This document shows positions 37,963 to 62,846 of a stretch of DNA of 64,000 nucleotides, piece after piece. The stretch lies in assembly GCA_963700145.1 (NCBI GenBank), contig OY969474.1, positions 1,024,001 through 1,088,000 of the forward strand. The letters run 5' to 3'. Every line of letters begins with the position of its first letter. Position 1 is the first letter of the stretch. The notes below the pieces were generated by a model. It made no database searches and had not been told where the DNA came from. It worked only from the letters and a program-made list of their open reading frames with translations. The stretch comes from an uncultured Acidobacteriota bacterium (GTDB lineage Bacteria; Acidobacteriota; Thermoanaerobaculia; Multivoradales; UBA5704). The translations under genes were made by a program, and so were the position numbers.

Positions 37963-37972
37963 GGTTCCAGCC

Positions 37973-38254: not shown

Positions 38255-38305
38255 GGCCCGAGTGTAACCCCTGGCTTCACAGGCCGCAAGGCAGGGCTCG
38301 TCCGC

Positions 38306-39732: not shown

Positions 39733-39734
39733 GG

Positions 39735-40613: not shown

Positions 40614-40629
40614 CCTCGATATCTCCTCT

Positions 40630-41835
40630 TCAAGCCTCCGCGCCGACCAGCGCGAGACCAAAACCCTGACGCCCGAGCTCCTCGCCAGGAAAATCCGCAA
40701 CAGCTTCGCCGTGAAGAAGCGCGGCCGCACCGGCGGCGCCACCGGCTTCCTTGCTCTCGAACAGAAAGACGGAGCCTGCAGGGAGCACCCGCCGGAGCGG
40801 CTTGGACCGTCTCCGAGCGACATCCCACCCGCCCGCGAGAGCGAAGCCGGGCAATGCCGCCGCGACGAGACGACACGGCAGCTCCCGAGCGCCGGAGAGA
40901 TTGTCCGCCGCGAAACCGGGCGGGTAGCCGCCGGCCGCCGAGAACGTCGGCGTCGCGACGTACAACCGGAAGCGCTCCGATCCTCCGAGCAGCGGCGGCT
41001 GAGTGAACGGCAGTTGCGGCCCCGCGGCGAGCCGCGCGGTACGGCCGTCCCCGCCGAGCCGGACCTGACCCTCGGGGGCGAGCGCCGTCCCGGCGACCTC
41101 GAAGCCGATCGTCACCCCTCGGCGCAGGCGCACGTAGCCGAAGGTGTAGAGCATGTGCTCCTTGGCCATGCGGTCGCGATCATCGATGCCGAGCCCCACT
41201 CGCACCTCGTCCATCCACAGCTCCTCGGCGGAAACGAAATCCTGCGGCTCGGGCACCTGGCCAGCAGACCAGCGCTCGAAGCCGCTCGCGGTCAAGAACC
41301 ATCCAGCCGCTGACTCGGGCTCCCGCTCGGGCGGCGCCGGCCAGCGACGCCACGCGGTGCCGGTCCACTCGTGGGGCTCCAAAAGAGCGAGGGGATGAGA
41401 CCAACTGGCGCCCCCTGCCTCGACAGGTCGGAGGCGGAACACGTGGGTAACAGAAGGCGGTTCCGGTTCCTCGAAGTGTTTTTTCGCCTTCGGTGTCCGA
41501 TGGACCAGGACCTCGAGATCGGCGGGAGCCGCGAGCAGCACCTCGCCGTGCCGCACCAGCCACGGCCCGCGGAGGGCAAGGGAGCCGAAGCCGCCCCACG
41601 GCCCCAGCTCATCCACGAGCTGCCCGAGGAGACTCGACCACGTCGCGCCGTCGAGGTGGTCGAGCGGCAGTCGCGCGTCCAGCAGCCGCCGCGTGCGGAG
41701 GGCGCCGTAAAGTGTCGAGGGGTACGGCGGAAAGAGGGACCGCAGGTAGTGGTCCGCGCCCAGGCTGCTCGGCTTGCCATCGCGGAAGAACAGGATGTCG
41801 TCCGGTACCGCCTGCAGCGCTTTCCAGCTCATCAC
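40630..41835 (-). CDS. cmr3: Type III-B Cmr3 (Cas5 family)
   Basis: DILFFRDGKP, PPYPSTLYGALR, LGGDGR, GGWD, PAGSVF, GFG. Confidence 0.93.
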   Translation of the reverse strand: MMSWKALQAVPDDILFFRDGKPSSLGADHYLRSLFPPYPSTLYGALRTRRLLDARLPLDHLDGATWSSLLGQLVDELGPWGGFGSLALRGPWLVRHGEVLLAAPADLEVLVHRTPKAKKHFEEPEPPSVTHVFRLRPVEAGGASWSHPLALLEPHEWTGTAWRRWPAPPEREPESAAGWFLTASGFERWSAGQVPEPQDFVSAEELWMDEVRVGLGIDDRDRMAKEHMLYTFGYVRLRRGVTIGFEVAGTALAPEGQVRLGGDGRTARLAAGPQLPFTQPPLLGGSERFRLYVATPTFSAAGGYPPGFAADNLSGARELPCRLVAAALPGFALAGGWDVARRRSKPLRRVLPAGSVFLFESKEAGGAAGAAALLHGEAVADFPGEELGRQGFGLALVGAEA

Positions 41836-43499
41836 GCCGCCCCCGCGCCCGCCAGCAGCGCTGCGTCCGCTTCTTCCTCACGCCAGTCCCGCACCTCGGT
41901 CGCGAGGAAACGTACGATGCGCAGCGCCTGCGAGCGCCCGGAATTGAAGAACGGCACCATGAGCCGCGCGATCTCGCGCGCTGCCGCATCTCCCATTCCG
42001 CCGCGGCCGATGCGGTCCGCCAGCCAATCCTTCCACTGCTCGGGCGTGGTGAAGACGGAGGCGACGACGTCCTCGTCCTCACGCAGGTGGTAGGTGAGCT
42101 TCGAGGACAGCTCTCCATCGCTCAGCAGCGTCACCAGCTTGGCGAAATCGCCGAGGTCGTCCCACTTGATAGCCACCTCGACCGGTACCCCGCCACGCTT
42201 GTCGAGCCGCAGGGCCAGCGCATCTCTCCCGGCCTCCTGCTTCGCCTTGCGCTTGAGCAGCTTCTCGAGGTCACCGAAAAGGAGTCCCGCCGGGTGCTTC
42301 GTATGGGCGAATAGCACGGCGCCCGAGACGGTGAAGGCTTCCTCGATTCCTCCGCCCGCCAGACGGTCGCGGAGCGGCAGGAGCTCCTTCTCGTAGCGGG
42401 CGCGCAGCCGCAGGGCCAGGGGCAGCGCGTCGCGTGGGTCGCAGACGACGAGGACGTCGTCGCCGCCGGCGTAGATGAGCTGCGGCCGCTTCCCCGCTGG
42501 CACATAGCTGCCAAGTGCTTCGAGGTTGAGGTTAGGCGACTCCTGCGAGCGCAGCGAGTCGGCGAAGCCTGCTAGGGCCGAGGAGACTTCTCGGTGGAGC
42601 TCTTCGACACGCCCGTCGCGCACCAGCGCAGGTCCGCGAGAGAGGATCTCCCCCATCCGATCGCCGTCCACCTTGAGCAGGGCAAAGTAATGGAAGCCCT
42701 CGCCCCGCTCGTCCTCCCGCGGCTCGAAGTAGCGGAAGTCGGAGAACCAGGCATCCGGACAGTCGGCGACCTTCGGATAGAGACGCTTGGTGGAGCAGAC
42801 CAGGCAGAGCCGGGTCTGGTCGAGCCGGAAGAAGGCGTGGTCGCCGGAGCGGCTCTTCCTGCTCAGCGCTTCGGCCCGCACCCAGGCATCGCGCACGGTT
42901 TGCCGGATACCGTTCGGCAGCGCCGTCCGTTCTCCGCAGACTGCGCATTTCTCGCCCGTCTCCTCGATCTGTGGGAAAGGACGGAAGCGGCGCGCGGCCG
43001 TGAAGATCCGGGCCCCCTCGAGACTCGCCGCCGCGTAGTCGCCGGGCTCCTCAACCAGGCTCCACGCGATCTCGAGGACGTGGTCCGTCTGGCGTGGCCG
43101 TCCCACCTGTGGGGGATCGCTCCAGATGTCCGCGTCGATGACGAAGTCGTATCTTTCGAGCACCTTGGCGGCCGCCCCCACCAGCGCGTTCCATCGCTCC
43201 TCGACGGCCGCCCGCATCCGGGCAGCGATCTCCGCGCCTTGGCCTGCCGGGACGCGGGCGACGAAGCGGTTCGGAAGACCGGCGGGAAGCCTCGGCTCCT
43301 CCCCGGCGGCGGGCACCGGAACGAAGGGAAAGACCATGGCGCAGCCGGGCTGCGCCAGCACCACCCGGATCGCTTCCTCGATCAGACGCGACAGCACCGC
43401 ACTGCCGGTCCACAGGTCCGCCACCCGCCGCGCCTGTGCGATGAAGGTGTGGACCGGCCCGATGCGGAAGGTAAGGAGCGCGGTAGCGGGCCTTCTCAC
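41832..43499 (-). CDS. cas10: Cas10/Cmr2, HD-less, intact palm (555 aa)
   Basis: GTGA overlap with cmr1; IGPVHTFIAQARRVADLWTGS, LPNRF, CAVCG/CLVC, DGDRMG, IYAGGDD. Confidence 0.93.
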   Translation of the reverse strand: MRRPATALLTFRIGPVHTFIAQARRVADLWTGSAVLSRLIEEAIRVVLAQPGCAMVFPFVPVPAAGEEPRLPAGLPNRFVARVPAGQGAEIAARMRAAVEERWNALVGAAAKVLERYDFVIDADIWSDPPQVGRPRQTDHVLEIAWSLVEEPGDYAAASLEGARIFTAARRFRPFPQIEETGEKCAVCGERTALPNGIRQTVRDAWVRAEALSRKSRSGDHAFFRLDQTRLCLVCSTKRLYPKVADCPDAWFSDFRYFEPREDERGEGFHYFALLKVDGDRMGEILSRGPALVRDGRVEELHREVSSALAGFADSLRSQESPNLNLEALGSYVPAGKRPQLIYAGGDDVLVVCDPRDALPLALRLRARYEKELLPLRDRLAGGGIEEAFTVSGAVLFAHTKHPAGLLFGDLEKLLKRKAKQEAGRDALALRLDKRGGVPVEVAIKWDDLGDFAKLVTLLSDGELSSKLTYHLREDEDVVASVFTTPEQWKDWLADRIGRGGMGDAAAREIARLMVPFFNSGRSQALRIVRFLATEVRDWREEEADAALLAGAGAA

Positions 43500-44704
43500 A
43501 GCACCTTCTCCACGAGCTTCTTGCGGGCGAGGTCGCCAAGAAAATGGGCGACGATCGACCCCTGCTCCGGTGACGGCGGCGCCGCGGGCCTCGGGAGGCC
43601 CTTGAAGCGGATGACCTGACCGTTCGGCACCAGGGGCGCCGGTAGGTAGGTGAAAACGGCGAAGAAGCCCTCCTTGAGGTGGGCGATATGGAGCAGCAGC
43701 GGCGAGGCGCGCCGCCGCTCCTTGCCGTTTTCCTCCCAAGCGACGATCTGGTCCCCGAAGGGCAGCGGCAGACCGAAGCCCGCTCGATCCGGGACGCCCC
43801 CGGATGGCTGCCGGCGAGGTCCCGCCCAAACGTAATCCCGGTTCGCGAGAGGGGTTGTTCCCAGGGTCCTTCCGTCCTCTGGGTAGCCATAGCGCCGACG
43901 GAAAGCCATCAGCCAGGCGCCGGCTCGTACCATCGCCTCGTCCCAGCTCGTCGAGTGGACGCTCGCGACGAACACGCGGCTGTCGCGGGTGAAATAGGTC
44001 CAGTGCGCGAGGGCTCCGGAAGCGCTCTCCTGCGCCAGCAGTGACAGCCGCTTCTTCGTCTCACCGACGAACGCCTCGCGGCCGGGTAGCGCGCCGCCGA
44101 CTTCACGCAGCGAGCCGAACCCACGTCGGCTGCGCGTGCCGAGCCCACCGAGGTTGAGCCAGCACCAGAAAGCCGCGTCCCAGAGCTCGGAGCCCGCGCC
44201 GCCGCCGCGAGGCCGCCGCCAGGTGAGCCGAAGTGATGCCTTCTGGGCCGGGAGAAAGCAGGACCGCGAGAGGCGCGCCTGCCCTCCGCCTGCCGGCGCA
44301 AGGCAGCCGTAGCCCAGATAGAGCAGTGGGTTGACCGGCCACTGCATGCGCAGCCGGCTCGTGGCTTCACGCCATTCCGGAGTGCCTCGCCGAACACCCC
44401 ACTCGTCCGCCAGCGCTTCGTCGCCGAGCGGTCTTCCCCACGTGTGCAGCGACTCGGCTGCCACAGAAGCCGGCATCCCGAGCGCCCGCACTTGCAGCGG
44501 CGAGCGTGCCTCGGTCGAGCCGAAGATCTCCGCTTCCAGCCGTTTGACCTCGCCCAGGTCGCCCGCCGTCGCCCCGCCCGCGACTGCCCGGAACCACCAG
44601 CGGAGCTGCCCGCGAACCGAGGCCGCCCGCCACTCGGCCTGCTGGCGCACGCCGCCCAGAAAACAGGGCGTCACGAACTCGATCTCGAGCTGAAGCCGCT
44701 CCAT
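43496..44704 (-). CDS. cmr1: Type III-B RAMP Cmr1
   Basis: VTPCFLGG, SVRGQLRWWFRA, GGLGTRSRRGFG, FGLPL, RRASPL. Confidence 0.93.
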   Translation of the reverse strand: MERLQLEIEFVTPCFLGGVRQQAEWRAASVRGQLRWWFRAVAGGATAGDLGEVKRLEAEIFGSTEARSPLQVRALGMPASVAAESLHTWGRPLGDEALADEWGVRRGTPEWREATSRLRMQWPVNPLLYLGYGCLAPAGGGQARLSRSCFLPAQKASLRLTWRRPRGGGAGSELWDAAFWCWLNLGGLGTRSRRGFGSLREVGGALPGREAFVGETKKRLSLLAQESASGALAHWTYFTRDSRVFVASVHSTSWDEAMVRAGAWLMAFRRRYGYPEDGRTLGTTPLANRDYVWAGPRRQPSGGVPDRAGFGLPLPFGDQIVAWEENGKERRRASPLLLHIAHLKEGFFAVFTYLPAPLVPNGQVIRFKGLPRPAAPPSPEQGSIVAHFLGDLARKKLVEKVL

Positions 44705-44711
44705 CTGCCGA

Positions 44712-46697
44712 CTAAGACACGGCGCCGGCCGCTGAGGGGGAGTCGACCGGAGCGCGACGCTTCTCCCGCACCAGGAACCCGACCGTGGCAACAGTCCACC
44801 GCTCCTCCTCCTGGACCGCGAGCGGTGCGTCGCCCCGGAGCGGCCCGCCACACGCCGCCTGCCAGAGGAGGCGAGGGAGCCCTCCCTGCGGCTTCACATC
44901 GCTGCGCGCGCCAGACGCCGGCTGTTCCAACCAGGAGAGGTCCGCCTCGTGGGTCGTGGCGAAGACCTTCAGGTGCTCCACATCCGCTCGGCCGGTGAAG
45001 CCCTTGGGGAGCTGCAGCTCGATCTCGTCCCCGGCTCGCACGCCGACCAGGAGCTCGCGTTCCGGATCGAGGCCCTCGTTTGCACCCCCCACGGGGTAAA
45101 GCAGGCTGACGGCGCCGGTGAGGCCGAGGTCCAACACGTGAATGAAGAGGGGACTCGTATGACGATGGAAAATGCGAAAGCCCAGGCGCTCGCCTTCGTG
45201 GTAGACGACCCGACCGGAGCGGCTGTCGGGGCGCGCCGGGCTCGCCGCGCCGTCCGCGGCGATCCGCAGGAGCTGCACCTCGACGCAACCCCGAAGCGGG
45301 TTTCTAGGATCTTCGTCCTCGACCCGCAAGAGGTTGCGGTAGCGGGCGAGCCGCTCGAGATCGGCGACGAGCGACCCTACGGCGCCGGAGCCTGCCGCTA
45401 TCGGGAAGAAGACAGCTACCCCCTCGTCATCGACCGCCGCCCACGTGGCTGCTCCTTCGCCCAACTCGACCCGCACGTCGGCACCTTCGCCGTCGGCTAC
45501 CAGCAAGAGGAGCGGGGAGTCGCCGACTCGTCGCGCCAGACTCTTGCCTCCCTTCGCACGAAGGGCGGCCGCCGAGACGGCCACAGGCATCCGCATCCAA
45601 CCCGGGCCCTTCGCTCGCTCGACAGCCCGCGCGCCGGCGCCGATCGGGCTCGTCTCCTCGACGATCTCCGCCTCACTCGAGACCGCGTGGACACGCTCCA
45701 CGCGCGCGAGCCCCAGCGGCTGTGCGGCGCGATCGATCTCGCGCGCGCCTGACGGGTAGATGGCCCAGAGCGAGCCGGGAGTGACGCCGTGGACGGCGCC
45801 ACCCCCCAACCGCACGCGCTCAGCGGCGCGCTCGTGGACCGGCAGATACGGCGTGGGCGCGGCTGTCGCCATGCCGAAGAGCAGGCGGTCGCGCGCTCCT
45901 TCGAGCTGCGGTGTTTGACCCAAAGCGCTGGCTGCGACCGCAGCGCGCACCGGTTCGAGGAGGTCGCGATAAGTAGCGCGGGCCGGGGCCTGTTGCAACG
46001 CCTGGCAGAGGTGGTAGGTGAAAACGCTGTGCGACGGCGCCCCTGGCTTGAAGGGGAGCTCCTTCGCACGCTCCTCTTCCCGGCACGCGGCGAAGAGCAC
46101 ATAGCGATCCGCTACCCCTAGAAGACCACTAAGACCAGCGTCGCGTGCTCGCCGGGCGAAGAGCTCGGCAGGAACCGGCGACGGTGGGAGCTTCGTGATC
46201 GGCCGGGTCTCAACCGGGAGCCACTTCTCGCGTCCCTCGCGCGCGAGCGTCCCCGAGTAGCAGGTATCGACGATGATCGCGACGTTGGGCGTCACCTCGC
46301 TCATCTCCAACACCCAGGCGTAGATCTCGTCGTCGGTGATGTCCCGGAACGGGTGGGGATCCCGGCCGCCGTCGTGCGGGACGATCGACTCGTCCAAGCC
46401 GTTCGGCTCGTCGCCTTCGCGATCAGGCACTTGCGAGCCGTGGCCGCTGTAGAAGAAGACGACTGCGTCGCCGGATCGTGCGCGCATCCGCAGCGCGGTG
46501 AGCCCGTCGAGGATGGCCTTGCGGGTCGCGGCCTCGTCGAGGAGCAGCGTGACTCCGTCCTCCGGGAAGCCGTATCGCCCGCGGAGGACTTCCTCCATTA
46601 GCCGCGCGTCGTTGGCGCAGCTCCGGAGCTGGTTCTTGAAGTTCGGGTACCGGTCGATACCGACCAGTAGGGCGAACTTGCCACGCCGGCTGGACAC
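44712..46697 (-). CDS. Caspase-family (peptidase C14, metacaspase-like) protease with C-terminal DUF4384-like domain
   Basis: ALLVGIDRY, YSGHGS (His), IVDTCYSG (Cys), LFAAC, FTYHL, QTPQLEG; GTG start inferred. Confidence 0.9.
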   Translation of the reverse strand: MSSRRGKFALLVGIDRYPNFKNQLRSCANDARLMEEVLRGRYGFPEDGVTLLLDEAATRKAILDGLTALRMRARSGDAVVFFYSGHGSQVPDREGDEPNGLDESIVPHDGGRDPHPFRDITDDEIYAWVLEMSEVTPNVAIIVDTCYSGTLAREGREKWLPVETRPITKLPPSPVPAELFARRARDAGLSGLLGVADRYVLFAACREEERAKELPFKPGAPSHSVFTYHLCQALQQAPARATYRDLLEPVRAAVAASALGQTPQLEGARDRLLFGMATAAPTPYLPVHERAAERVRLGGGAVHGVTPGSLWAIYPSGAREIDRAAQPLGLARVERVHAVSSEAEIVEETSPIGAGARAVERAKGPGWMRMPVAVSAAALRAKGGKSLARRVGDSPLLLLVADGEGADVRVELGEGAATWAAVDDEGVAVFFPIAAGSGAVGSLVADLERLARYRNLLRVEDEDPRNPLRGCVEVQLLRIAADGAASPARPDSRSGRVVYHEGERLGFRIFHRHTSPLFIHVLDLGLTGAVSLLYPVGGANEGLDPERELLVGVRAGDEIELQLPKGFTGRADVEHLKVFATTHEADLSWLEQPASGARSDVKPQGGLPRLLWQAACGGPLRGDAPLAVQEEERWTVATVGFLVREKRRAPVDSPSAAGAVS

Positions 46698-46731: not shown

Positions 46732-46896
46732 TCAGACCCCCTTGTCGGTGGGCTTCGGATCGTTCTGCTGGTCCGGTTCGCTGCCCTCCTGCGTGCGGGC
46801 GACCTTGTCGCCCTCCGGCTCCGCGCTCTTGTCGCCCTTGACGATGTTGTCCTCTCCCGGGGTGCTGCCTTCTTGCGTCTTGCTGGTGCGGTCCAT
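46732..46896 (-). CDS. Putative 54-aa repetitive peptide, in frame with the CHAT protein C-terminus
   Basis: GGGAGGAG RBS just upstream of the ATG at 46896; MDRTSKTQEGSTPGEDNIVKGDKSAEPEGDKVARTQEGSEPDQQNDPKPTDKGV. Confidence 0.55.
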   Translation of the reverse strand: MDRTSKTQEGSTPGEDNIVKGDKSAEPEGDKVARTQEGSEPDQQNDPKPTDKGV

Positions 46897-49800: not shown

Positions 49801-50778
49801 CGGGCGGCCGCCGGGACGGAGGAGCACCGCAACGACGTCGATCCCCTGCTGATTTACGACGACATGGGCGAAGTCGTCGCTATGCAGGGCGATACGCAAC
49901 GTCGCGGCGCGGCTGCCGGCGAGGGCTGCGGCGCGCGGCTCGCCCGGGCTGAGGAGGAGGTCCGGCGCGGCCGCAGCGCCGCGCGGCCCACGAGGCTCCT
50001 CGCGGACGAGCTCGAAGGAGTACACGGCGAGGAGCTGCGCCCCGGCGTCCGCCACCCCGAACACCCGAACCTCGTAGCTCCCGGCGGTCAGGCTCTCGAC
50101 TGGCAGGATGAGTGAGAAATTACCGAGATCGCTGCGCTGGACATCGTCGTCCGCCCAGATCTTCTCGCCGTGCGCGCCGGCGAGCTCCATCCGATAGCGC
50201 GGGAAGGTGCGCAAGTCCCCCAAGTTGAGTAGCAGCACGAGTCGTGCGCCGCCGGGCGGCGCCGTGACCCGCACCGGCCCCTCCCGCGTGCGCTCGGCGC
50301 CGCTCCCCTGCGGCACCAAGTCCGCTACCACCACATCACCGCTCGGCCCGGCCGTCCGCGAGACCTCGCCGCGGAGGCGAAGCCCCCAGGCGAGGAGGCC
50401 GAGGCAGACCACGAGCGACGCTGCGAGACCCCACACCGCCGCGGCCGCCCAAGCCGAAGTGCGGACCGGCAGTTGCGCTGAACCGTTCAGGCGCTCGACC
50501 AGCCGCTCCCACTCGCGCTCGGTCTCTGGATCCAGGGCATCGGCCTCGGCCGGCGCTGCACCGAACACCATCAGGTCGAGCACCGCCTGCGCGCACTCGG
50601 GACAGAGCGCCAGATGCTCCTGGATCAGCTCCTCCTCTTCGCGCGCGTGGAGGCCCAGCGAGTAGTCGGCGAGCTGAACGGCCGACGGGTGATCCGCGAG
50701 CTCCCGGCTCCGTGCCCGGGCGATCGCCCGGATTGCCGCGTCGAGCCGCGTGTCGTCGAGTTCGTGCGGAGGCGCCAT
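46732..50778 (-). CDS. Zinc-finger anti-sigma / TM / PPC-like / TPR / CHAT protease fusion (1348 aa)
   Basis: TGATG overlap with the sigma gene; EHLALCPEC, a TM helix, TPR repeats (TLHNMG, SLNNLA), HFATHA, VLSACRTG, SLWDVDD, PYYWAGF. Confidence 0.85.
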   Translation of the reverse strand: MAPPHELDDTRLDAAIRAIARARSRELADHPSAVQLADYSLGLHAREEEELIQEHLALCPECAQAVLDLMVFGAAPAEADALDPETEREWERLVERLNGSAQLPVRTSAWAAAAVWGLAASLVVCLGLLAWGLRLRGEVSRTAGPSGDVVVADLVPQGSGAERTREGPVRVTAPPGGARLVLLLNLGDLRTFPRYRMELAGAHGEKIWADDDVQRSDLGNFSLILPVESLTAGSYEVRVFGVADAGAQLLAVYSFELVREEPRGPRGAAAAPDLLLSPGEPRAAALAGSRAATLRIALHSDDFAHVVVNQQGIDVVAVLLRPGGRPLLTVDSPNGAHGPEHLFLVADEDGEYRLEIRPFNEAAAGRFSATLARRPATADDRRRADACRVVSEGDAALARDQPDARQQAVERYEHALKLFNRVGERYPAMVAHMKLGRAWSREGNMQRAVEHWEAAFRSARALGLDAQVSSLHNDLGFAYQRLGEADRARTSYEAAFASARTAGDLREETVSLNNLALLEERAGEPWRALLLFDEALTNWRTLREATGEATTLHNMGSLFTALGRLPEARDALEQALRLHRVSGNRRQEATTAMALGWVRCLEGDFVRGRRDLLWSLALRREVGDRRGEAVTLDRLGSASREAGRPARAVREYEAAWAIFREGDDRRSEANTLSNFGDALVRAGKPAAGLGRLESALPLLLPLGDPSAISYAYFRRAKARRALGDPHGASADLREALTRLESVRAGAESGALRTSYLASVHEQYELAIDLAMDLHGREPAVGHDRAALDLAERARARTLLDLLTQARSSGVVATALAQDGDLRRVERSIRAFGERSDGADGARLRRLLFEREKLLVELRAVAVGERDVAPVIDSLAIQRRVLDRDTLLLVYALGEDRSFVWAVTREQIASAVLPPRAEVEAAVGRLLRLSAKAPGRGMATQAPLVGAEVAKLLLGGIAHRLGDHRLAIVADGVLARVPFSALPDPRGSGRPLVERHEIVVLPSASALEAVRRRTASPRPLSGLVAVVADPVFSRDDERFGRTGRTTGNTAPVVAGLAASTAAVTRAARDLGLRGFARVPFTRQEAAAIVALAPSGQTLQVTGAAANRSLVIDGRLRRYRIVHFATHALLHPQHPELSGLVLSLYDRDGRPQDGFLRSYEIADLSLPVDLVVLSACRTGGGKEVRGEGMVGLTQSFLEAGAAAVLASLWDVDDEATARLMERFYRELLAGGRSPAAALRSAQRSLRADPRWAAPYYWAGFVLAGEWRQPPRMLGDRVSHPRTLPRLAPGDLREEITMDRTSKTQEGSTPGEDNIVKGDKSAEPEGDKVARTQEGSEPDQQNDPKPTDKGV

Positions 50779-51350
50779 CACCGCTCTCCCGCGGCGACCC
50801 GGCGAGCCATGCACCGCTTCACCTGCTGCCGCGCCTCGTGTACGTGAGACTTGACGGTCTCGATCGAAACGTGGAGGAGGTCGGCAATCTCACGATAGTG
50901 GCGGTCCTGGAAGACGTAGAGCCAGAGGCATTGCCGCATCTTGGGCGCAAGCTCGTCGAGGCAGGCCCGCGCCGCCGCCAACTCCTCGGAGACCAGCGCT
51001 TGCTCGAGCGGGTTCGGCGCCGGGGCGGCGCCGACCGGCAGTGCGTGGTCGGCGGCCTCGTTCCCAGGCTCTCCTTCGGCTCCCAACGAGACCTCCTTGA
51101 CGTCTCTCTTGATTGCCCCTCGCCGCCGCAGCTCGTTCTTCCAGACATTCGCGGTGATCCTACGCACCCATGCGTCAGCGGCGGCTTCCGAACGCAAGTT
51201 GCCTATGTTCTGAGAGACACGAACGAAGACGTCCTGGGCGAGCGCGCGGGCCTCGTCGCTCGAGAAGCCTTGGTGGGTGAAGAAGCGATGGACACCTGGG
51301 CGATAGCGCACGAAGAGCTTGTGGACGAGCTCGCGCTGATCGTCGTTCAT
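50778..51350 (-). CDS. ECF-type RNA polymerase sigma factor
   Basis: Region 2 (LAQDVFVRV, AWVRRITAN) and region 4 (YREIADLLHVSIETVKSHVHEAR). Confidence 0.92.
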   Translation of the reverse strand: MNDDQRELVHKLFVRYRPGVHRFFTHQGFSSDEARALAQDVFVRVSQNIGNLRSEAAADAWVRRITANVWKNELRRRGAIKRDVKEVSLGAEGEPGNEAADHALPVGAAPAPNPLEQALVSEELAAARACLDELAPKMRQCLWLYVFQDRHYREIADLLHVSIETVKSHVHEARQQVKRCMARRVAAGER

Positions 51351-51436: not shown

Positions 51437-53434
51437 CTACGAGCCCGACTGGGAAGGATCTTGCGGCAACGGGAGCTGCAGCGACGGGAGGTAGGCACCC
51501 TGCTCCTTCGCACCGAAGAGGTGCTCGTAGAGCTGGATGCTGCCGAATGCCCTGCCGAGCTGGCCGAGGAAAAAGAGCAAGACATTGGGCGCGGAAGCGA
51601 AGAGGTGGAGCGTCGCCGAGCGCTCCTCGGGCATCCGCTGGCGGATGCGATAGCTGATGTCATGCGCGAGCTGCAAGGCGTGGAGGCCGTCGGTAACGCC
51701 GGTCGGATTCGGCTTCGGGTAAAGGGACCTTGGAATGACACGGCCCACCGCGGCCCCGGAGTCTCGGAGGTAGTGCGTGACGTCGTCGATTACGGGCCAG
51801 GTCACTCCGACCGCCATCGCGACGTCGAGCTCCGCACCGAGCCAAATGTCCTCCTCCTCGTTCCAGAGCGGCCCTTGGCGCGCCGGCCCAGCCTCGGCTC
51901 GCCAGAGCTGTGGTTTGCCGACCTGACCCTTTTGGTAGAGCGCGATGTCCAGGCCCGATTTCGCCTCCAGGCAGTACCCGGCAGCGAAGGCGAGTGTGGA
52001 ATGGGCCGCGAAGTCGAGGACGATGGGGCGGCCTGGACGTTTGTGGCGGAGTAGAAACTCCCGGAGCTGCGGGAAAACCTCCTCTTGCCAAAGCCGGTGC
52101 TCGCGGATCTTGCGGCCATCGAAGTAGGGCCGGAGATCCAACAGGTCGTCGGGCTTTTCGATAGAGATGAAGGGATCAGGGAAGCTCCAGATGGAGAGCT
52201 GGAGCGGCGGCTCCTCGCGCGGTGTGCGCTTGCTGCGGGTTGTCTCGCCGGCGCCTTCGCTCCGCGCGCCCCGGCTCTTGCTGAAGTCGAAGAGTTGACC
52301 GTCTCCCGGCAGGAAGAGGACCGGCGTGGTCCACTCCAGGGAGTCCCTGTGGTCAGCCAGGATGGCGAGTCGGCCCTCGGTCACGGCCTCCTCCACCGGC
52401 TCACCGGCGGCGAGGCTCTCGTAGAACGCGGCGCTGAACTCGATGGCCGCCCGATCGGAGATCGGGAACTGCATGGCGACCGTGGCCGGGATGTCACGCA
52501 GCATCAGCGAGACCGCCACGCCGGTAAATGGGTCCTTCGATGGCTGCGGCGGGACGGCGCCGCTCCAGCACGAGTTGAGCACGACCAGCCGCAGGTCCCG
52601 CACGTCCTTGAGGAACTCGGCGAAGAACTCACCCGGGACGGCCTCGGCTTCGTGCTGCGCGCCTTCGAAGTACAAACCGAACCGTTCGCGGCCGTTCTCG
52701 AGACGCCCGCCATGACCCATGAAATGAACGATCTGGTAGGGGTGCTTCTTCACCATGCGGCGAAGTTTCCGCACGTCAGGGTGGGTGAAAACGTCCACCG
52801 CGATGTCGGTGCGCCCCCGCAGTGCCTTCTTGATCCGCATCCGTTCCTTGCGCGTGTCGAGCGTATCGAGGCCCTTGGGGGCTGAGTCGATGAGAAGCAC
52901 CCGCAGAGGAGGACGCGCCGGCGCGGGGTCGGGCGCGTGGCGCACGGTGAGCGAGCGCACCACGGGAACGCGGGTGTCCCGGGCAAGGAAAACACCGTCG
53001 TCGAGCAACAACTCCCAGGGCAACGTCGCGATGGGCGCGAAGTCCTCACCCGGGTCGAAGCTCAGGCGGAGCCTGAGCCCGTGCCGCGACCGCGCGCGGC
53101 GGTCCTGCACCGGCGCCATGCTCTGCCTGTAGCGGTCCCGCACCTGACCCGCGAACAGGGCCGCGAAGAGCTTGCCGCCGATGTCGTGCTCAGTCCGCGG
53201 GGAAAGTTTCGGCGCGGATTTCCGCACGCGCATCGCGTCCCGCCAGGCAGGCGAGCTGCGGAGGACGCGCCGCTCGAGCGTCGAGAGCAGCTCGGATCTC
53301 TCGGCCTCGTCGAACGGTGGGTGAAACGGCGAATCCGCCGGCCCGAAGGGCGACCTGACCACGCGAGCCTCGTAGCCGCCTCCTTGGACCGACCGCACCT
53401 CGATCTCGAACTCGTCGTAGGACCTCTTGCTCAT
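51437..53434 (-). CDS. CHAT protease - SAVED cyclic-oligonucleotide sensor fusion (665 aa)
   Basis: LPWELL, HFMGHG, VLNSCWSG, VAMQFPISD; C-terminal SAVED-like segments AAHSTLAFAAGY, VAMAVGVT, LHLFASAPNVLLFFLGQ, IQLYE, YLPS. Confidence 0.85.
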   Translation of the reverse strand: MSKRSYDEFEIEVRSVQGGGYEARVVRSPFGPADSPFHPPFDEAERSELLSTLERRVLRSSPAWRDAMRVRKSAPKLSPRTEHDIGGKLFAALFAGQVRDRYRQSMAPVQDRRARSRHGLRLRLSFDPGEDFAPIATLPWELLLDDGVFLARDTRVPVVRSLTVRHAPDPAPARPPLRVLLIDSAPKGLDTLDTRKERMRIKKALRGRTDIAVDVFTHPDVRKLRRMVKKHPYQIVHFMGHGGRLENGRERFGLYFEGAQHEAEAVPGEFFAEFLKDVRDLRLVVLNSCWSGAVPPQPSKDPFTGVAVSLMLRDIPATVAMQFPISDRAAIEFSAAFYESLAAGEPVEEAVTEGRLAILADHRDSLEWTTPVLFLPGDGQLFDFSKSRGARSEGAGETTRSKRTPREEPPLQLSIWSFPDPFISIEKPDDLLDLRPYFDGRKIREHRLWQEEVFPQLREFLLRHKRPGRPIVLDFAAHSTLAFAAGYCLEAKSGLDIALYQKGQVGKPQLWRAEAGPARQGPLWNEEEDIWLGAELDVAMAVGVTWPVIDDVTHYLRDSGAAVGRVIPRSLYPKPNPTGVTDGLHALQLAHDISYRIRQRMPEERSATLHLFASAPNVLLFFLGQLGRAFGSIQLYEHLFGAKEQGAYLPSLQLPLPQDPSQSGS

Positions 53435-53436
53435 CG

Positions 53437-54441
53437 TCAGGCCTCCAGCACCATCTTCCCGAGCCCGAACGTCGTCCCCTTCCCCACGTGCAGCACCTCG
53501 GCCGTCCGGAGCAGTGGCGCGAACGGCGCGAGGTCCCCTTCGAGGGTGAGCGTTCCCAGGAACCCACCGAGCGCGATCTTCGTTCCCTGCCGCTGGCTGA
53601 AGCGCTCCCAGTCGTGCCAATGAAGGTCCGCAGCGGCGATCTCGACGTTCGAGGAGCGGGCGAGCAGTGGCGCGAAGGCCCAATCGAGGTCGGCCCCCGG
53701 GACGTAGAAGTGAGCCAGCTCGAGAAGGCGCCGCAGCATCGAGAAGGCGAGGGCGCGGAAGCCCGGGGCCTGGGCCAACTGCCCCCGCACCTTCAGGCGC
53801 GTCGGCGTGGCGAACCGCAGCGTGGCCCGCCCATTCGCGGCACCGCCGCTCCCCTCTCCCGCCACCTGCAGCGCCGGCATCGACCCGGCGACGAAGGACC
53901 CTCCGGAGAAGAGCGGCTGCCAGCCGCTGCCTTCCGCGGCCGGTACGGCGGCCTCCTCCAAGACGAAGCGCGCCCGGCGCCACCCGAGCCCCGTCGTCGC
54001 CATCCGCTCCACCGCCAGCAGCACGTAGGCGGCGAGGTCCGCAGCGCAACCGAAGAGCAGAAGGTCGAGCTCGAGCGGGTCACCCGGGGCGAAGTCGGTG
54101 CGGCCGCTCCGGGGCTCGATGACATAGGGCCGCGGCGGCGTCGGCAGGCCGCGGAGGAACGGCGGCGGCTCCTCCTCGATGAAGGTCTCGAACAGCCGCG
54201 TATAGACGCAGGCGCGGCGAAGCGGGCAAGTGACGCAGGGCTGAGCCGGCCCCATCGCGCAAACGGAGCGACGGAGGGCGTTGCCGAAGGCGCCGCGCAG
54301 GAGCGAGCCGTGGTAGGGCGGCAGATGCGCGGGCTCCAGCGCGCGCAGGGTGCAGCGGAGCCGCAGGTACGGAATGCGCGGCAGCAGGTACGGCGCGACC
54401 TCGGGAACAGACCGCTCGCCGCCGAGCGCGAGTGCTTCCAT
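53437..54441 (-). CDS. cas6: CRISPR endoribonuclease Cas6
   Basis: GSLLRGAFG, CxxC..C, PRPYV, FATPTRL, C-terminal G-loop HVGKGTTFGLG. Confidence 0.92.
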   Translation of the reverse strand: MEALALGGERSVPEVAPYLLPRIPYLRLRCTLRALEPAHLPPYHGSLLRGAFGNALRRSVCAMGPAQPCVTCPLRRACVYTRLFETFIEEEPPPFLRGLPTPPRPYVIEPRSGRTDFAPGDPLELDLLLFGCAADLAAYVLLAVERMATTGLGWRRARFVLEEAAVPAAEGSGWQPLFSGGSFVAGSMPALQVAGEGSGGAANGRATLRFATPTRLKVRGQLAQAPGFRALAFSMLRRLLELAHFYVPGADLDWAFAPLLARSSNVEIAAADLHWHDWERFSQRQGTKIALGGFLGTLTLEGDLAPFAPLLRTAEVLHVGKGTTFGLGKMVLEA

Positions 54442-54902
54442 GCCAGAGAAGACACCACCCCGCGACGTTTAGGGGAGAACCACCAGCGGCCGCGCAACCC
54501 CTCCGTGCTGATCAGGTCGTTTCCTCCCGACGAAGCGAACGTCCCTTTGAGCGCAGCCGCCGCAGTCGCAATCCCGCCGTGCTGATCAGGTCGCTTCCTT
54601 CTGGGAGCTTGTCATTCCAAGTGGCCAGGCTCCAACCTTCATCGCGTCGCAATCCCTCCGTGCTGATCAGGTCGTTTCCTCCCAGGATCTTCCAGACATT
54701 CCGTCGCAGGCTTTCCTCCACCTCCTCGAGGTCGCAATCCCTCCGTGCTGATCAGGTCGTTTCCTCCACGAGTGGTGGCCGATCGGCTGGCCGATCCGCA
54801 ACCGCGTGTCGCAATCCCTCCGTGCTGATCAGGTCGTTTCCTCCACGAGTGGTGGCCGATCGGCTGGCCGATCCGCAACCGCGTGTCGCAATCCCTCCGT
54901 GC

Positions 54903-56361
54903 GGGGATGCCCCGTTCCCTGTTGAAAGCCGAAAGAGGGAAAGCGGCTCGGTTGATCATGCCACGGCCTTGGTGTTCGTCGGTTCCTCGATCGCCGCGAG
55001 CGCGAGCTCGAGAGCCCCGAGGTGCCGATGTCCCTTGACACGCCGGAAGCCAGCCTCCGCGTCACACAGCGCCAGGGCGACCCAGCGCAGCACCATGTCG
55101 CCGCCGCGCCAGCGCTTGACGTTGCGCGTCGTCGTACGGATCGAGCCGATCGTGTTCTCGATCGCGTTGGTCGAGGCGAGCAACCGGCGCAGAGCGTCGG
55201 GCAGCTTCAGCCGCAAGGCGGTGAGGGTCTCGTCGAGGCCCTCGCGCAGGCTGCCCGCGGCGCCCGCGTGGCCTGCGTGCTCGAGCCAGCGGGCAAGCTG
55301 CTCGAGGCGACGCTTGGCGAGGTCGAAGCGAGCGCTCTGGTAGGCCTCGACCATCAGGCGGTCGACCCGGGCTTGGAGCTGCTTGGGCAGGTGGTCGCGG
55401 ACGTTGCGGCGCTTGTGGAGCTGGCAGCGCTGGACGTGGGTTGCGTCCCCGAAGACGGCGCGCACGGCCTTGCGCAGCCCCTTGCCGCCGTCGAGCACCG
55501 CCAAGAAGCGCGGCGGCATCGCGAGGCCTCGCTCCAACAGCTCCTGGAGCAGGCCGGTACAGAGCGCCGCGTTCTCCGTCGCGCCTTCACGCAGGCCGAG
55601 CACCCGCTTGGTCCCGTCGCGCGCGATGCCGAGTGCCACCACCAGGGTGTGGCCGGCCACCTCCAGCCCGTCGATCATCAGGATCAGGGGCTGGAAGTCC
55701 GACAGGTCTCGGCGCAGCCACGCGCCCAGCAGACGACGCGTCCCCGCCACCAGCCGGCGCTGGACCGCACTCTTGCTCGTCGCGCGCTCCGGCACCGACT
55801 CTGCGAGCGGCTCCAAGCTCCGACCGTAGCGGCGCTGCGAGACGCCGACCAGCGCCTGCTCGATCACCCGCTCCGTGAAGGGATCTTCGTCCTGAAAGGC
55901 GCGCACCGAAGGCAAGCTCATCTCGCCACCGTCGCGTCGCCGGACGCGCGGTCGCGGCAGCGCCACCTGGCGGCCACCCAGCACGAACTCGCTCGCCGTC
56001 GAGCCCCAGCGGTACGCCTCGCGGGTCGGATTGCGCCGACGCTTCGGACCGACGACGGCCTCGACCTCGTCCGCGAGCTGCCGCCCCAGGGCCTCGACGC
56101 CCGCGGCGTGAAACAGCTCCAGCAGCCCCTGGCGGCTGGCCTCGATGCCCTCGACCATCGGCCGCAGCAGCGCTTGTAGCCCGTGGCTGATGCGCGCCGC
56201 ACGGCCCCCTTGCCACACCACCCGCCTTTCTGCTCTCGTCTTCATCACGGCTCCTTGGCCCCCTGGCGGGGCCGGTTATTCGACCAACCCGATTCTCGAT
56301 CAGGTGGGCCGAGGAGCCGCCTTCACCTCATTGCTCTTTCAACAGCGGGAGGGACAACCCC
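54903..56361 (-). mobile_element. IS256-family element, copy 1 (1459 bp)
   Basis: Imperfect IRs GGGGATGCCCCGTTCCCTGTTGAAAG / GGGGTTGTCCCTCCCGCTGTTGAAAG; 9-bp TSD CCTCCGTGC at 54894-54902 and 56362-56370. Confidence 0.93.
54956..56248 (-). CDS. IS256-family DDE transposase
   Basis: LMIDG, VLDGGKGL, QRCQLHKRRN, STNAIE. Confidence 0.93.
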   Translation of the reverse strand: MMKTRAERRVVWQGGRAARISHGLQALLRPMVEGIEASRQGLLELFHAAGVEALGRQLADEVEAVVGPKRRRNPTREAYRWGSTASEFVLGGRQVALPRPRVRRRDGGEMSLPSVRAFQDEDPFTERVIEQALVGVSQRRYGRSLEPLAESVPERATSKSAVQRRLVAGTRRLLGAWLRRDLSDFQPLILMIDGLEVAGHTLVVALGIARDGTKRVLGLREGATENAALCTGLLQELLERGLAMPPRFLAVLDGGKGLRKAVRAVFGDATHVQRCQLHKRRNVRDHLPKQLQARVDRLMVEAYQSARFDLAKRRLEQLARWLEHAGHAGAAGSLREGLDETLTALRLKLPDALRRLLASTNAIENTIGSIRTTTRNVKRWRGGDMVLRWVALALCDAEAGFRRVKGHRHLGALELALAAIEEPTNTKAVA

Positions 56362-59300: not shown

Positions 59301-59720
59301 CTCCGTGCTGATCAGGTCGTTTCCGCCCCAGTCTTTGAAGAAATGCAATCAACTGGCATGCCGGCAGTCGCAATCCCTCCGTGCTGATCAGGTCGTTTCC
59401 GCCAGATGAGGCCCTAGCGGCCTTAACCCGGGAAGCCAAGCGTCGCAGTCGCAATCCCTCCGTGCTGATCAGGTCGTTTCCGCCGCTCGAGTGGGGCACC
59501 ACCGATATCCGGGTCAAGAAGTCGCAATCCCTCCGTGCTGATCAGGTCGTTTGCGCGGGTGATAGCCGTGCACGAACCGATGGGACTCAGCAACGGCCAA
59601 GAGCCGCAATCCCTCCGTGCTGATCAGGTCGTTTCCTCCGAGGTCTTCGCCATGAGCGAGGGCTGCAAGATGCTGGCCGAGTCGCAATCCCTCCGTGCTG
59701 ATCAGGTCGTTTCCTCCGGG

Positions 59721-61179: not shown

Positions 61180-61537
61180 TCCTCCGGGGCCGCACGCGCG
61201 GAGCGACCGCGCCAACTCCTGGCAGTAGTCGCAATCCCTCCGTGCGGATCAGGTCGTTTCCGCCGGTTAGCAGTATGTACCGTATCCTTCGGTCGACAAA
61301 CTCTTCGTCGCAATCCCTCCGTGCTGATCAGGTCGTTTCCGCCGCAGTTGGTATTGCCTTAGCCAACATGAAAGGAGTAGATGCCGAGGTCGCAATCCCT
61401 CCGTGCTGATCAGGTCGTTTCCGCCTGCAGATCAACCCGAACGACCTGGCCAGCCTGAAGTGGGATTGGTTGCAATCCCTCCGTGCGGATCAGGTCGTTT
61501 CCGCCGTCAACGCCGCCGGCCCCAACACGCCGGGCTA

Positions 61538-62609: not shown

Positions 62610-62846
62610 ATGAGCGCCGCGGTCAAGAAGACCATCTCTCTCCCTGCGGAGCTCGCCCGGGAGGCGGAGGAGACCGCACAGGCTGAGGGGAAAACGCTCA
62701 GCGCCGTCGTCCAGGATGCCCTGCGCCTGGCTCGCAGGACGCGCCTCGAGCGGGAGCTGAAGGAGCTCCAGGGTTACTGGAGCCGTCGGGCGCGGGAGCG
62801 GGGGATTCTCACGGAAGACGACCTGGCTCCCTACCTCGGCGATTGA
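62610..62846 (+). CDS. Ribbon-helix-helix (CopG-like) antitoxin
   Basis: KKTISLPAEL, TLSAVVQDAL, GILTEDD; AAGGAG RBS; TGGTATGAT extended -10-like site at 62576. Confidence 0.8.
   Translation: MSAAVKKTISLPAELAREAEETAQAEGKTLSAVVQDALRLARRTRLERELKELQGYWSRRARERGILTEDDLAPYLGD

Follow-up and report, generated by a model that had tools for sequence, protein, structure and literature searches.

The only fusion of a SAVED sensor with a CHAT protease that has been studied so far is SAVED-CHAT of Haliangium ochraceum (Hoch_1319, PDB 8TL0), for which Steens et al. (10.1101/2023.06.23.546230) describe activation by filament formation, cleavage of PCaspase, a linker at residues 297-304 and a dyad of H375 and C422. 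The screen in that report, as it is described there, took no account of domain order, so that CHAT-first clusters may already be in it. A survey of type III systems from 2024 presents the SAVED/CHAT fusion as rare, with three loci. Bernal-Bernal et al. (2024, PMC11506125), in their account of the Myxococcus xanthus DdvS/DdvA island, list a protein with the opposite arrangement, 'N-terminal CHAT, C-terminal SAVED', as a predicted effector of CBASS, and have DdvS/DdvA controlling this CBASS/Cmr island. Two further systems are relevant. Cap4 of E. cloacae (PDB 7YIA/7YIB) is a CBASS nuclease-SAVED protein that is reported to be activated by cAAG, which its CD-NTase makes (PMC8096243). In CalpL/CalpT/CalpS, as described, a SAVED protease gated by cyclic oligoadenylate (cOA) stands beside an ECF sigma factor and an anti-sigma factor in a type III-B locus, and the SAVED domain of CalpL doubles as a ring nuclease.

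Here we analyze a gene for a CHAT-then-SAVED protein, which we call CHAT-SAVED, in the window, that is, the whole 64,000-nt stretch of DNA under study. Like the Haliangium protein, it joins a SAVED sensor to a CHAT protease that has a His/Cys dyad, and like the Haliangium gene it is associated with a type III-B Cmr operon and clustered with a gene for a C14 caspase. However, the domain order is reversed, SAVED being N-terminal in Haliangium, and the lengths differ (496 aa in Haliangium, 665 aa in the window). The sequence profile detects no relationship between the two SAVED domains, which resemble each other in fold only (8tl0_K, E = 8.1e-08), and the two CHAT domains share about 22% identity. 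The window also has no PCi or PCk genes; its sigma factor gene is paired instead with a membrane anti-sigma-TPR-CHAT gene. An ECF sigma factor, a transmembrane anti-sigma factor with TPR-CHAT, a peptidase gene, type III-B Cmr genes and a CHAT-then-SAVED effector are all common to the window and the Myxococcus island as described, and the single-pass anti-sigma factor in the window has a DdvA-like architecture: its zinc-motif domain is cytoplasmic, its TPR-CHAT part extracytoplasmic, and the two are fused as in Myxococcus. In the published description of that island, however, the effector is preceded by a CD-NTase and accompanied by a second CBASS, whereas the effector in the window follows cas6 in an island without a CD-NTase. 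We liken the two effectors by their architecture as described and not by sequence, and the Myxococcus protein is likewise uncharacterised. Cap4 is the nearest solved SAVED relative, and its SAVED domain is also C-terminal, but an N-terminal endonuclease takes the place of the accessory region and CHAT domain found here. CalpL differs in having a Lon protease, cA4 as its ligand and a soluble anti-sigma factor, CalpT, where the window has a CHAT protease and a membrane ZAS-type anti-sigma factor with TPR-CHAT.

The CHAT-SAVED protein and the island that encodes it

The positions of the gene, its domains and its neighbours are given in Table 1. At the ATG at 53434, GC3 climbs to 0.87 from a level near 0.5, which supports both the reality of the open reading frame and its start. 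The first-pass annotation had described an N-terminal CHAT domain, a basic linker and a C-terminal SAVED-like domain of about 270 aa, and this description held well. Pfam matched CHAT (PF12770) at E = 2.4e-28 (99.8 bits against a cut-off of 24) and SAVED (PF18145) to residues 456-653 at E = 5.3e-23 (82.2 bits against a cut-off of 26.2), while the NCBIfam SAVED model NF033611 matched residues 426-655 with 119.7 bits against a cut-off of 33; the region that aligns with Cap4, residues 413-653, agrees roughly with the size first estimated. In an alignment of 56 homologues of 33-85% identity, His241, Cys289 and 27 further columns were invariant, and the CHAT part aligns with the stretch of 8tl0 in which H375 and C422 lie. 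The AlphaFold2 model of the protein had a mean pLDDT of 88.4 and a pTM of 0.86, with pLDDT above 90 across most of residues 411-654 in the SAVED part, and its only internal stretch with pLDDT below 50, residues 391-403, overlaps the linker. A Foldseek search with this model returned E. cloacae Cap4 (7yib) first, at 4.4e-20, then 8tl0 at 5.6e-11, and thereafter Csx29 and separase; Cap5, TIR-SAVED, CalpL and one viral SAVED protein were also among the matches, so that the C-terminal domain is SAVED by both the Pfam model and its fold, which consists of two fused CARF-like halves. In the wider family, conservation extends over the accessory region as well as the CHAT core, and the tblastn matches of relatives begin at residues 1-6. 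None of 23 CHAT-SAVED open reading frames contained a strongly hydrophobic segment, which suggests that the protein is cytoplasmic.

Table 1. Positions of the CHAT-SAVED gene, its domains and the neighbouring genes in the window
Feature	Position	Strand	Basis or remark
cmr6	38306-39337	-	Pfam, NCBIfam
cmr5	39334-39762	-	Pfam, NCBIfam
cmr4	39735-40823 (ORF)	-	Pfam, NCBIfam
cmr3	40630-41835	-	Pfam, NCBIfam
cas10/cmr2	41832..43499	-	Cmr2_N, Cas10 palm2, TIGR02577
cmr1	43496..44851 (ORF limits; start uncertain)	-	TIGR01894, RAMPs
C14 caspase-like protease	44712..46697	-	Peptidase_C14 2.3e-27 (Pfam), PADLOC caspase; start uncertain, GTG candidate at 46697
Anti-sigma factor fused to TPR-CHAT, DdvA-like architecture, 1348 aa	46732..50778	-	Pfam TPR and CHAT
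ECF sigma factor, DdvS-like by position	50778..51350	-	Sigma70_r2/r4, TIGR02937
CHAT-SAVED gene (P0002), 665 aa	51437..53434	-	ORF and translation, GC3 profile, Pfam CHAT and SAVED
C-terminal SAVED sensor domain, E. cloacae Cap4 type, residues 413-653	51476..52198	-	Pfam, NCBIfam, Cap4 alignment
Basic disordered linker, residues 385-406	52217..52282	-	Coordinates; overlaps low-pLDDT stretch
CHAT caspase-like protease domain, residues 102-365	52340..53131	-	PF12770; aligns with CHAT of 8tl0
Catalytic Cys289	52568-52570	-	Motif coordinates, alignment of 56 sequences
Catalytic His241	52712-52714	-	Motif coordinates, alignment of 56 sequences
N-terminal accessory region, residues 1-101	53132..53434	-	AlphaFold2 secondary structure: three strands, then helices
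cas6	53437..54441	-	Pfam CRISPR_Cas6 4.2e-19; stop 2 nt before the CHAT-SAVED ATG
CRISPR arrays, 37-nt repeat	~54491-54921, 56353-59717, 61228-61425, 63434 to beyond window	- (probable)	Repeat families, genome-wide repeat positions
Two identical IS256-family transposase genes interrupting the arrays	54956-56248, 59834-61126	-, +	Transposase_mut
Second cas6, also interrupting the arrays	61538-62437	-	Cas6 match

In the Cas10 protein, the GGDD cyclase motif is kept (42456-42467), and no HD domain was found; the first 250 residues of the open reading frame lack an HD dipeptide. The C14 caspase-like protease has its His motif at 46434-46451 and its Cys motif at 46251-46271, and its C-terminal half, of about 400 aa, has no domain assignment. 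The end of the repeat suggests that the arrays are transcribed from the minus strand. The CRISPR locus looks rearranged: it contains two IS copies, its cas6 is duplicated, and a remnant of cas1 lies beyond the window.

Origin of the fusion and its family

The first-pass annotation had read the domain order as the reverse of that of the characterised protein and had proposed an independent fusion. The first point agrees with the structure, in which CHAT occupies chain residues 278-450 of 496, and the second was borne out by the affinities of the two domains. The SAVED domain matched Cap4 (7yia) at 9.9e-25, a profile built from the 56 homologues matched Cap4 at 1.6e-55, and the Cap4-type effector models of PADLOC matched the protein at 2.4e-60. 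The same profile matched 8tl0 in the CHAT part only, in one stretch (profile positions 173-353). When the SAVED domain alone was searched against 1.84 billion representatives, 937 matches were obtained, headed by CHAT-SAVED proteins of about 650 aa and followed by proteins of about 510 aa. The latter are full-length homologues of EcCap4 (profile against 7yib, 3e-141), and Pfam named their N-terminal domain in none of 26 cases. The CHAT part was only 21-23% identical to the chains of 8tl0 (17% for chain C) in the Foldseek alignments, and its nearest relatives, with 35-40% identity over residues 1-385, bear other C-terminal domains. As judged by sequence similarity, then, the CHAT module derives from a family of CHAT-first proteases that are otherwise transmembrane receptors, and the protein is a receptor-protease module of this kind joined to a SAVED domain of the Cap4 clade, separately from Haliangium SAVED-CHAT.

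This architecture is not new, since it is already in print and is common in databases; no member has yet been characterised, and we found no literature under the term 'CHAT-SAVED'. More than 100 full-length homologues were found, and among the matches listed 115 of 120 homologues had both domains. The relatives that we collected included at least 194 CHAT-then-SAVED proteins, and SAVED preceded CHAT in none of the 256. CHAT-SAVED thus forms a second family beside the single fusion studied so far, built independently of it and much commoner. In islands of both type III-B and CBASS it accompanies DdvS/DdvA-like sigma, anti-sigma and TPR-CHAT genes, and it bears on the targets of bacterial caspase-like effectors, on the ligand of a Cap4-type SAVED domain near Cas10, and on feedback from effector proteolysis to a sigma switch.

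Source of the signal and proposed function

We propose, with a probability of roughly 0.6, that CHAT-SAVED is a cytoplasmic signal-gated protease of the caspase family that serves this type III-B (Cmr) CRISPR system as its second-messenger effector; most likely, Cas10 drives it and a cyclic trinucleotide activates it. We infer the wiring to Cas10 from gene order alone. Upon target-RNA binding, Cas10 would make cyclic oligoadenylate. The signal species is likely cA3, because a cyclic trinucleotide is what the nearest characterised SAVED domain, that of E. cloacae Cap4, responds to, although EcCap4 itself takes cAAG and the sequence does not reveal the choice of ligand. The ligand would glue SAVED domains together head-to-tail, as in Cap4, TIR-SAVED, CalpL and SAVED-CHAT, and this oligomerisation would turn the CHAT protease on. 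The active protease would then cleave cellular proteins and bring about a growth stop (abortive infection). As in the Haliangium cascade, the co-operonic C14 caspase would be the most likely dedicated substrate in this genome, while the ECF sigma factor and the anti-sigma-TPR-CHAT protein would form a DdvS/DdvA-type switch for expression of the island, apart from the effector. It had been suggested that the fusion converges on the same cascade as in Haliangium. This stands only in part: a C14 caspase does lie in the operon, but among 22 related loci collected by an alignment-based scan a caspase homologue was near CHAT-SAVED in only two, so that the family needs no caspase substrate, and the conserved neighbours are instead the ECF sigma, anti-sigma and TPR-CHAT genes, which adjoin CHAT-SAVED in 18.

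Profile searches recognised CHAT-SAVED as the only cyclic-nucleotide sensor in the window and the CRISPR locus, in agreement with the earlier view that it is the sole visible second-messenger receptor. Csx1_HEPN, Cas_APE2256, Card1, Csm6_HEPN and Csx3 had no match in the genome, a result that carries little weight for those families whose search control matched nowhere. The protein may also degrade its signal, by analogy with other SAVED proteins.

The effector might alternatively belong to CBASS rather than to Cas10 signalling, either as an orphan that stayed in the CRISPR island after the loss of its CD-NTase or in the service of a distant CD-NTase. The published Myxococcus island, in which a CD-NTase and a CHAT-SAVED protein are coupled as a predicted type I CBASS (PMC11506125), points this way, as does the fact that CBASS Cap4 nucleases have SAVED domains of the same clade. 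Moreover, a SMODS gene lies inside the fetched locus in four of 21 relatives, adjoining the CHAT-SAVED gene with a strong match in L011, L013 and L019 and a weak one in L004 (a further match, L087, in the genome of L014 but off that locus, was left out of the adjacent count). Taken with the Myxococcus pairing, these cases suggest that a CD-NTase was probably the ancestral source of the signal. The source genome (5.46 Mb) itself contains two SAVED genes and one SMODS CD-NTase. However, this only SMODS match (4491583-4492065) is 3.4 Mb away from CHAT-SAVED and has the other SAVED gene about 1.3 kb off as its own effector, whereas CHAT-SAVED starts 2 nt past cas6 in the cmr operon. SMODS had no match anywhere in the genomes of 13 of 20 relatives, although these, as MAGs, may be incomplete. 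In addition, the conserved catalytic dyad and SAVED residues argue against a decaying relic. We therefore regard service to CBASS as unlikely here. The association with CRISPR genes also recurs: cas6 is directly upstream of the homologue in four more loci (L008, L015, L016 and L018), cas6 or cmr genes occur within 10 kb in 11 of the 22, and Cas10 is present in L004, L009 and L016. If gene order is a guide to the wiring, CHAT-SAVED would be a CBASS effector that has been rewired in nature to a CRISPR cyclase.

The adjoining sigma and anti-sigma genes

The ATG of the anti-sigma-TPR-CHAT gene overlaps the stop codon of the sigma gene by 1 nt. The encoded protein has an HxxxCxxC motif (50593-50616), a transmembrane segment at residues 119-148 (50371-50460), and the His and Cys motifs of its CHAT domain at 47401-47418 and 47248-47268, respectively. 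Its first 258 aa align with anti-sigma factors that are encoded by genes of their own in the relatives. The best Foldseek match of the TPR-CHAT part was DdvA (8rw5, 6.2e-16). By phmmer, DdvA (8rot/8rw5) was not among the PDB matches of the anti-sigma protein or of its CHAT part (E up to 1), and a PDB search with the sigma factor, with E limited to 0.001, yielded none of the chains of 8rot/8rw5. In other words, the pair resembles DdvA/DdvS in architecture and fold only. The spacer on the 5' side of the sigma gene is 86 nt long.

These neighbours raise the question of whether the active CHAT domain acts on them in the manner of CalpL, cutting the cytoplasmic part of the anti-sigma factor and freeing the ECF sigma factor, so that the main output would be transcription, with positive feedback on the island, and not cell death. 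The adjacency of the sigma and TPR-CHAT genes in 18 of the 22 loci is in keeping with this, and in 17 of 18 loci inspected, which include one CHAT-only locus, a separate anti-sigma open reading frame of about 270 aa lies between the two, usually with all of these genes and CHAT-SAVED on one strand. The anti-sigma N-terminus is cytoplasmic, the TPR-CHAT part being exported or past the membrane segment, and precedents are described in CalpL/T/S and in Csx29/Csx30/CASP-sigma. Against it, the Myxococcus sigma/anti-sigma pair is reported to regulate its island (PMC11506125), which by itself would explain the co-occurrence, and we consider an effector with transcription as its main output distinctly improbable. 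In view of the DdvS/DdvA paper, the idea that the sigma, anti-sigma and TPR-CHAT genes encode dedicated substrates likewise ranks below their reading as regulators.

A further reading may also be entertained, as a speculative proposal with little likelihood of being right, in which CHAT-SAVED would be a cytoplasmic second input to the DdvA-type switch. Cyclic oligoadenylate from Cmr/Cas10 would cause its CHAT domain to cut the cytoplasmic anti-sigma domain, so that the ECF sigma factor would be freed and the CRISPR island more strongly expressed; events at the envelope would meanwhile be sensed by the exported TPR-CHAT half. If this is true, then one anti-sigma factor merges signals from outside and from inside, the latter RNA-guided by CRISPR, via two caspase-family proteases. 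Finally, the interrupted arrays, the duplicated cas6 and the survival of cas1 only as a fragment outside the window might suggest that CHAT-SAVED is an inactive remnant of a rearranged locus, or that its C-terminal domain is past nucleotide sensing, but the intact frame with its coding GC3 signature, the confident AlphaFold2 model, the invariant residues and the strong SAVED matches by Pfam, NCBIfam and profile make this very improbable. With no CD-NTase, a fused anti-sigma-TPR-CHAT gene and the caspase in the operon, the version in the window is compact and therefore convenient to reconstitute.

Gene limits, domains and operon context

The G+C content of the window is about 70% and long spurious ORFs are common in it; the reading frame of the CHAT-SAVED gene is open over 870 codons. 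Within this frame, third-position G+C (GC3) is about 0.5-0.6 before the ATG at 53434 and 0.87 from that codon onwards. Based on this jump and on the 2-nt spacing between the ATG and the cas6 stop, we obtained a gene of 665 aa, with the same limits as the first-pass annotation.

Pfam placed a CHAT domain at residues 102-365 (2.4e-28) and a SAVED domain at residues 456-653 (5.3e-23), both far over the cut-off, and the NCBIfam SAVED model spans residues 426-655. An AlphaFold2 model based on an alignment of 56 homologues was confident (mean pLDDT 88.4, pTM 0.86). Its sole internal disordered stretch, residues 391-403, lies within the basic linker that had been noted previously, which corresponds to residues 385-406. 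Foldseek ranked Enterobacter cloacae Cap4 (EcCap4, 7yib; 4.4e-20) first and the filament of Haliangium SAVED-CHAT (8tl0; 5.6e-11) second, followed by Csx29 and separase. Pfam and Foldseek are the two checks named by the first-pass annotation for its C-terminal SAVED domain. His241 and Cys289 are invariant across the 56-sequence alignment and fall within the part aligned to the CHAT domain of 8tl0.

The genes from cas6 through the HigB/HTH pair form a tight single string on the minus strand, and no HD domain was found in cas10/cmr2. CRISPR arrays with a 37-nt repeat sit upstream of cas6; they are broken by a second cas6 and by a pair of identical, oppositely oriented IS256-family transposase genes. 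The arrays continue to about 6.3 kb past the window, where an IS3 element, a fragment of Cas1 and a small HEPN protein were all that we found. Together, these features suggest a rearranged locus without an intact adaptation module.

Features of the CRISPR island (window positions)
Feature	Position	Strand	Remark
HigB/HTH pair	37675-38305	-	HigB-like toxin and HTH partner, directly past cmr6
cmr3, cmr4, cmr5, cmr6	38306-41835	-	
cas10/cmr2	41832-43499	-	GGDD at 42456-42467
cmr1	43496-44851	-	start uncertain
C14 caspase	44712 to about 46697	-	His and Cys motifs there
anti-sigma-TPR-CHAT	46732-50778	-	1348 aa, one ORF
ECF sigma	50778-51350	-	
CHAT-SAVED	51437-53434	-	
cas6	53437-54441	-	stop 2 nt ahead of CHAT-SAVED
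Repeat-plus-spacer units	54731-54884		two in succession, 100% identical: duplicated spacer in short array beside cas6
IS256-family (Transposase_mut)	54956-56248	-	430 aa; one side of largest array
IS256-family (Transposase_mut)	59834-61126	+	430 aa; other side of largest array
Second cas6	61538-62437		in arrays
PIN-domain protein	62687-63238	+	between arrays

The HigB-like/HTH, PIN-domain and HEPN genes (the last encoding 131 aa, between arrays past the window; L083 1773-2168, minus strand) are small toxin-antitoxin-like genes within the CRISPR locus. GC3 is 0.77-0.89 for the island genes (37600-64000) and 0.87-0.97 for the flanking housekeeping genes (1-37000), and the lower values of the island are consistent with horizontal acquisition.

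Between 37.6 and 64 kb, every sizeable ORF that bore a coding signature could be assigned, and the 20 of 23 such ORFs scanned between 1 and 37 kb were housekeeping genes or had no assignment. No CARF, NucC-like or ring-nuclease family was found among these ORFs. The earlier view of CHAT-SAVED as the only visible second-messenger receptor is valid for the window and the locus. Genome-wide, the Pfam models Csx1_HEPN, Cas_APE2256, Card1, Csm6_HEPN and Csx3 had no match, a weak negative for the three that were also matchless in control genomes. The 5.46-Mb genome contains one further SAVED gene, of 536 aa, and a single SMODS CD-NTase, about 1.3 kb away from that gene and 3.4 Mb from the window; this pair is a separate CBASS. 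At this CBASS-like pair (G000:C1:4489721-4492065; also L003, L084 and L085), the SMODS ORF encodes about 409-448 aa, and the 536-aa protein has a C-terminal SAVED domain behind 340 N-terminal residues without a named domain.

Domain order and origin of the fusion

In Haliangium SAVED-CHAT (496 aa), the alignment with CHAT-SAVED places the CHAT domain at about residues 278-450, and a hinge at 297-304 and an H375/C422 dyad have been described (Steens et al. preprint 10.1101/2023.06.23.546230). The order is therefore reversed in our protein, as had been claimed, and SAVED preceded CHAT in none of 256 collected proteins.

Three results agree in arguing that this fusion is independent of the Haliangium one, in line with the first-pass annotation. 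First, the SAVED domain is by sequence of the Cap4 type. CHAT-SAVED alone matched EcCap4 at 9.9e-25 and its family profile did so at 1.6e-55, whereas the profile matched 8tl0 in a single stretch, in the CHAT part only. The best PADLOC models for the C-terminal part were Cap4-type endonuclease effectors (2.4e-60). We also used just the SAVED region as a query against 1.84 billion cluster representatives (E up to 0.001), which gave 937 matches; the best were proteins of about 650 aa with a C-terminal SAVED domain, followed by proteins of about 510 aa. A profile built from 26 of these shorter proteins matched Cap4 7yib over its full length (3e-141), and Pfam named no domain in them besides SAVED. 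Second, in the separate SAVED phylogeny that the first-pass annotation had proposed, a FastTree of 244 regions (194 CHAT-SAVED, 32 Cap4-like and 18 other) needs only two changes of the CHAT-versus-Cap4 label; all its rows were picked by likeness to the window protein, and it is silent on more distant SAVED clades. Third, relatives of the CHAT half exist that are closer than the Haliangium CHAT.

These came from a scan that used the alignment as query and covered one genome per species; it yielded 560 relatives, the best 80 of which represent 79 distinct loci. Of the ORFs at these loci, 56 align with residues 1 to about 385 only (33-41% identity) and have a different C-terminal part, which in 10 sampled cases contained CBM9, PD40, FGE-sulfatase, TPR or no named domain. 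A strongly hydrophobic 19-mer occurs in 39 of the 56, past residue 340 in 36, and in none of the 23 CHAT-SAVED ORFs; some of the ORFs end at contig edges. Given these CHAT-first relatives and the Cap4-type SAVED, CHAT owes its N-terminal place to a family of receptor proteases in which CHAT comes first and the sensor last, and SAVED owes its C-terminal place to Cap4-like effectors.

In the 56 CHAT-only ORFs (L026-L082), which come from many phyla, the N-terminal region and CHAT of the window protein recur as the cytoplasmic part at the head of what are probably transmembrane receptor proteases; a strong membrane segment and CBM9, PD40, FGE-sulfatase or TPR domains come after it. Some adjoin TPR-CHAT genes (L044, L049) or caspase genes (L062, L072, L079, L082).

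Neighbouring genes and the Myxococcus island

The match extended into the SAVED part in 22 loci from the best 80 relatives, which their record titles name as Acidobacteriota, Thermoanaerobaculia or Holophagales MAGs. Sigma and TPR-CHAT genes lie beside CHAT-SAVED in 18 of them, and in a nineteenth TPR-CHAT lies at the edge of a contig. Of the remaining three, two stop within 0.5 kb of the CHAT-SAVED gene; the third (L004), whose flanks are complete and include cmr genes, has neither sigma nor TPR-CHAT. Genes for cas6 or cmr occur within 10 kb in 11 of the 22 loci, and cas6 is directly upstream in four. A SMODS CD-NTase was present within the fetched locus in four of 21 relatives (three strong matches, one weak), and the genomes (MAGs) of 13 of 20 relatives gave no SMODS match. 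Homologues of the window caspase were found in two of the 22 loci and beside four CHAT-only relatives.

[quoted passage not shown] 2024, PMC11506125). This island contains a CHAT-then-SAVED effector, DdvS, DdvA, an unknown protein, a peptidase of the C25 type, a type II CBASS, and an array with type III-B Cmr genes. As the island is described there, the window has the same gene set and order, but both CD-NTase systems are missing. The 1348-aa protein of the window has an HxxxCxxC motif, a single hydrophobic segment, TPRs and a CHAT domain with His and Cys. Sequence searches gave no link to DdvA; when residues 271-1360 were modelled with AlphaFold2 (pLDDT 80), the best Foldseek match of the model was DdvA (8rw5, 6.2e-16), above separase and Csx29. 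The two proteins are thus alike in architecture and fold without a sequence match.

Acidobacteriota relatives (L006, L009, L012-L017, L019, L020, L023 and others) have two genes instead of this DdvA form, for a membrane anti-sigma factor of about 270 aa and a TPR-CHAT protein of about 1020-1200 aa. In 17 of 18 loci examined, sigma and TPR-CHAT are set apart by the separate anti-sigma ORF, which has a hydrophobic segment. Since 15 of 18 N-termini of the TPR-CHAT proteins carry a lipoprotein-like signal (a hydrophobic run up to a Cys) when judged by eye, we take these proteins to be exported. In the 1348-aa protein, residues 1-258 align end to end with the separate anti-sigma factors; the two genes have fused in the window lineage. 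The HxxxCxxC zinc motif is kept in only six of the 18 separate anti-sigma factors.

The CHAT-then-SAVED order has been noted before: the 2024 Myxococcus paper (PMC11506125) states it, 115 of the 120 homologues listed have both domains, and some public records are named "SAVED domain-containing" or "CHAT domain/SMODS-associated...". Our CHAT domain is matched by positions 102-265 of the 498 in the PADLOC model SAVED_CHAT, from which we infer that this model is itself CHAT-first. The screen of Steens et al. for SAVED/CHAT fusions near a caspase took no account of domain order, and therefore its figure may include CHAT-first clusters. In the literature searched, outside which many subscription papers lie, we found no biochemical work on any CHAT-then-SAVED protein, no Cap4-type SAVED or receptor-protease descent of CHAT-SAVED, and no steady sigma/anti-sigma/TPR-CHAT linkage in type III-B loci without a CD-NTase.

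Proposed signalling and substrates

The protein anatomy, the operon position, the apparently competent Cas10 cyclase and the lack of another sensor or local CD-NTase are the established part of the mechanism. By analogy with characterised relatives, Cas10 would make a cyclic oligoadenylate once its target is bound. The ligand of CHAT-SAVED is probably a cyclic trinucleotide, because EcCap4, the nearest characterised SAVED protein, responds to cAAG (PMC8096243) and Haliangium SAVED-CHAT to cA3 (10.1101/2023.06.23.546230). It would bridge SAVED domains head to tail, and the resulting oligomers would switch on the CHAT protease.

Since Haliangium SAVED-CHAT cleaves PCaspase (10.1101/2023.06.23.546230), the co-operonic C14 caspase stands out in the window as a candidate dedicated target. 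Most members of the family have no caspase nearby, and the Myxococcus effector is half of a two-gene CBASS (PMC11506125); by this comparison, host proteins must presumably be possible targets of the protease as well. We read the sigma and anti-sigma-TPR-CHAT genes as an expression switch of the island, as with DdvS/DdvA. A bolder and, in our estimation, improbable reading is that the activated protease would also cut the cytoplasmic anti-sigma domain and thereby feed back on this switch, for which the action of CalpL on CalpT is a precedent. Self-limitation of CHAT-SAVED by ring-nuclease activity would likewise have precedents, in the SAVED domain of CalpL, which has this activity, and in a viral SAVED protein (PDB 9r8s) among the Foldseek matches.
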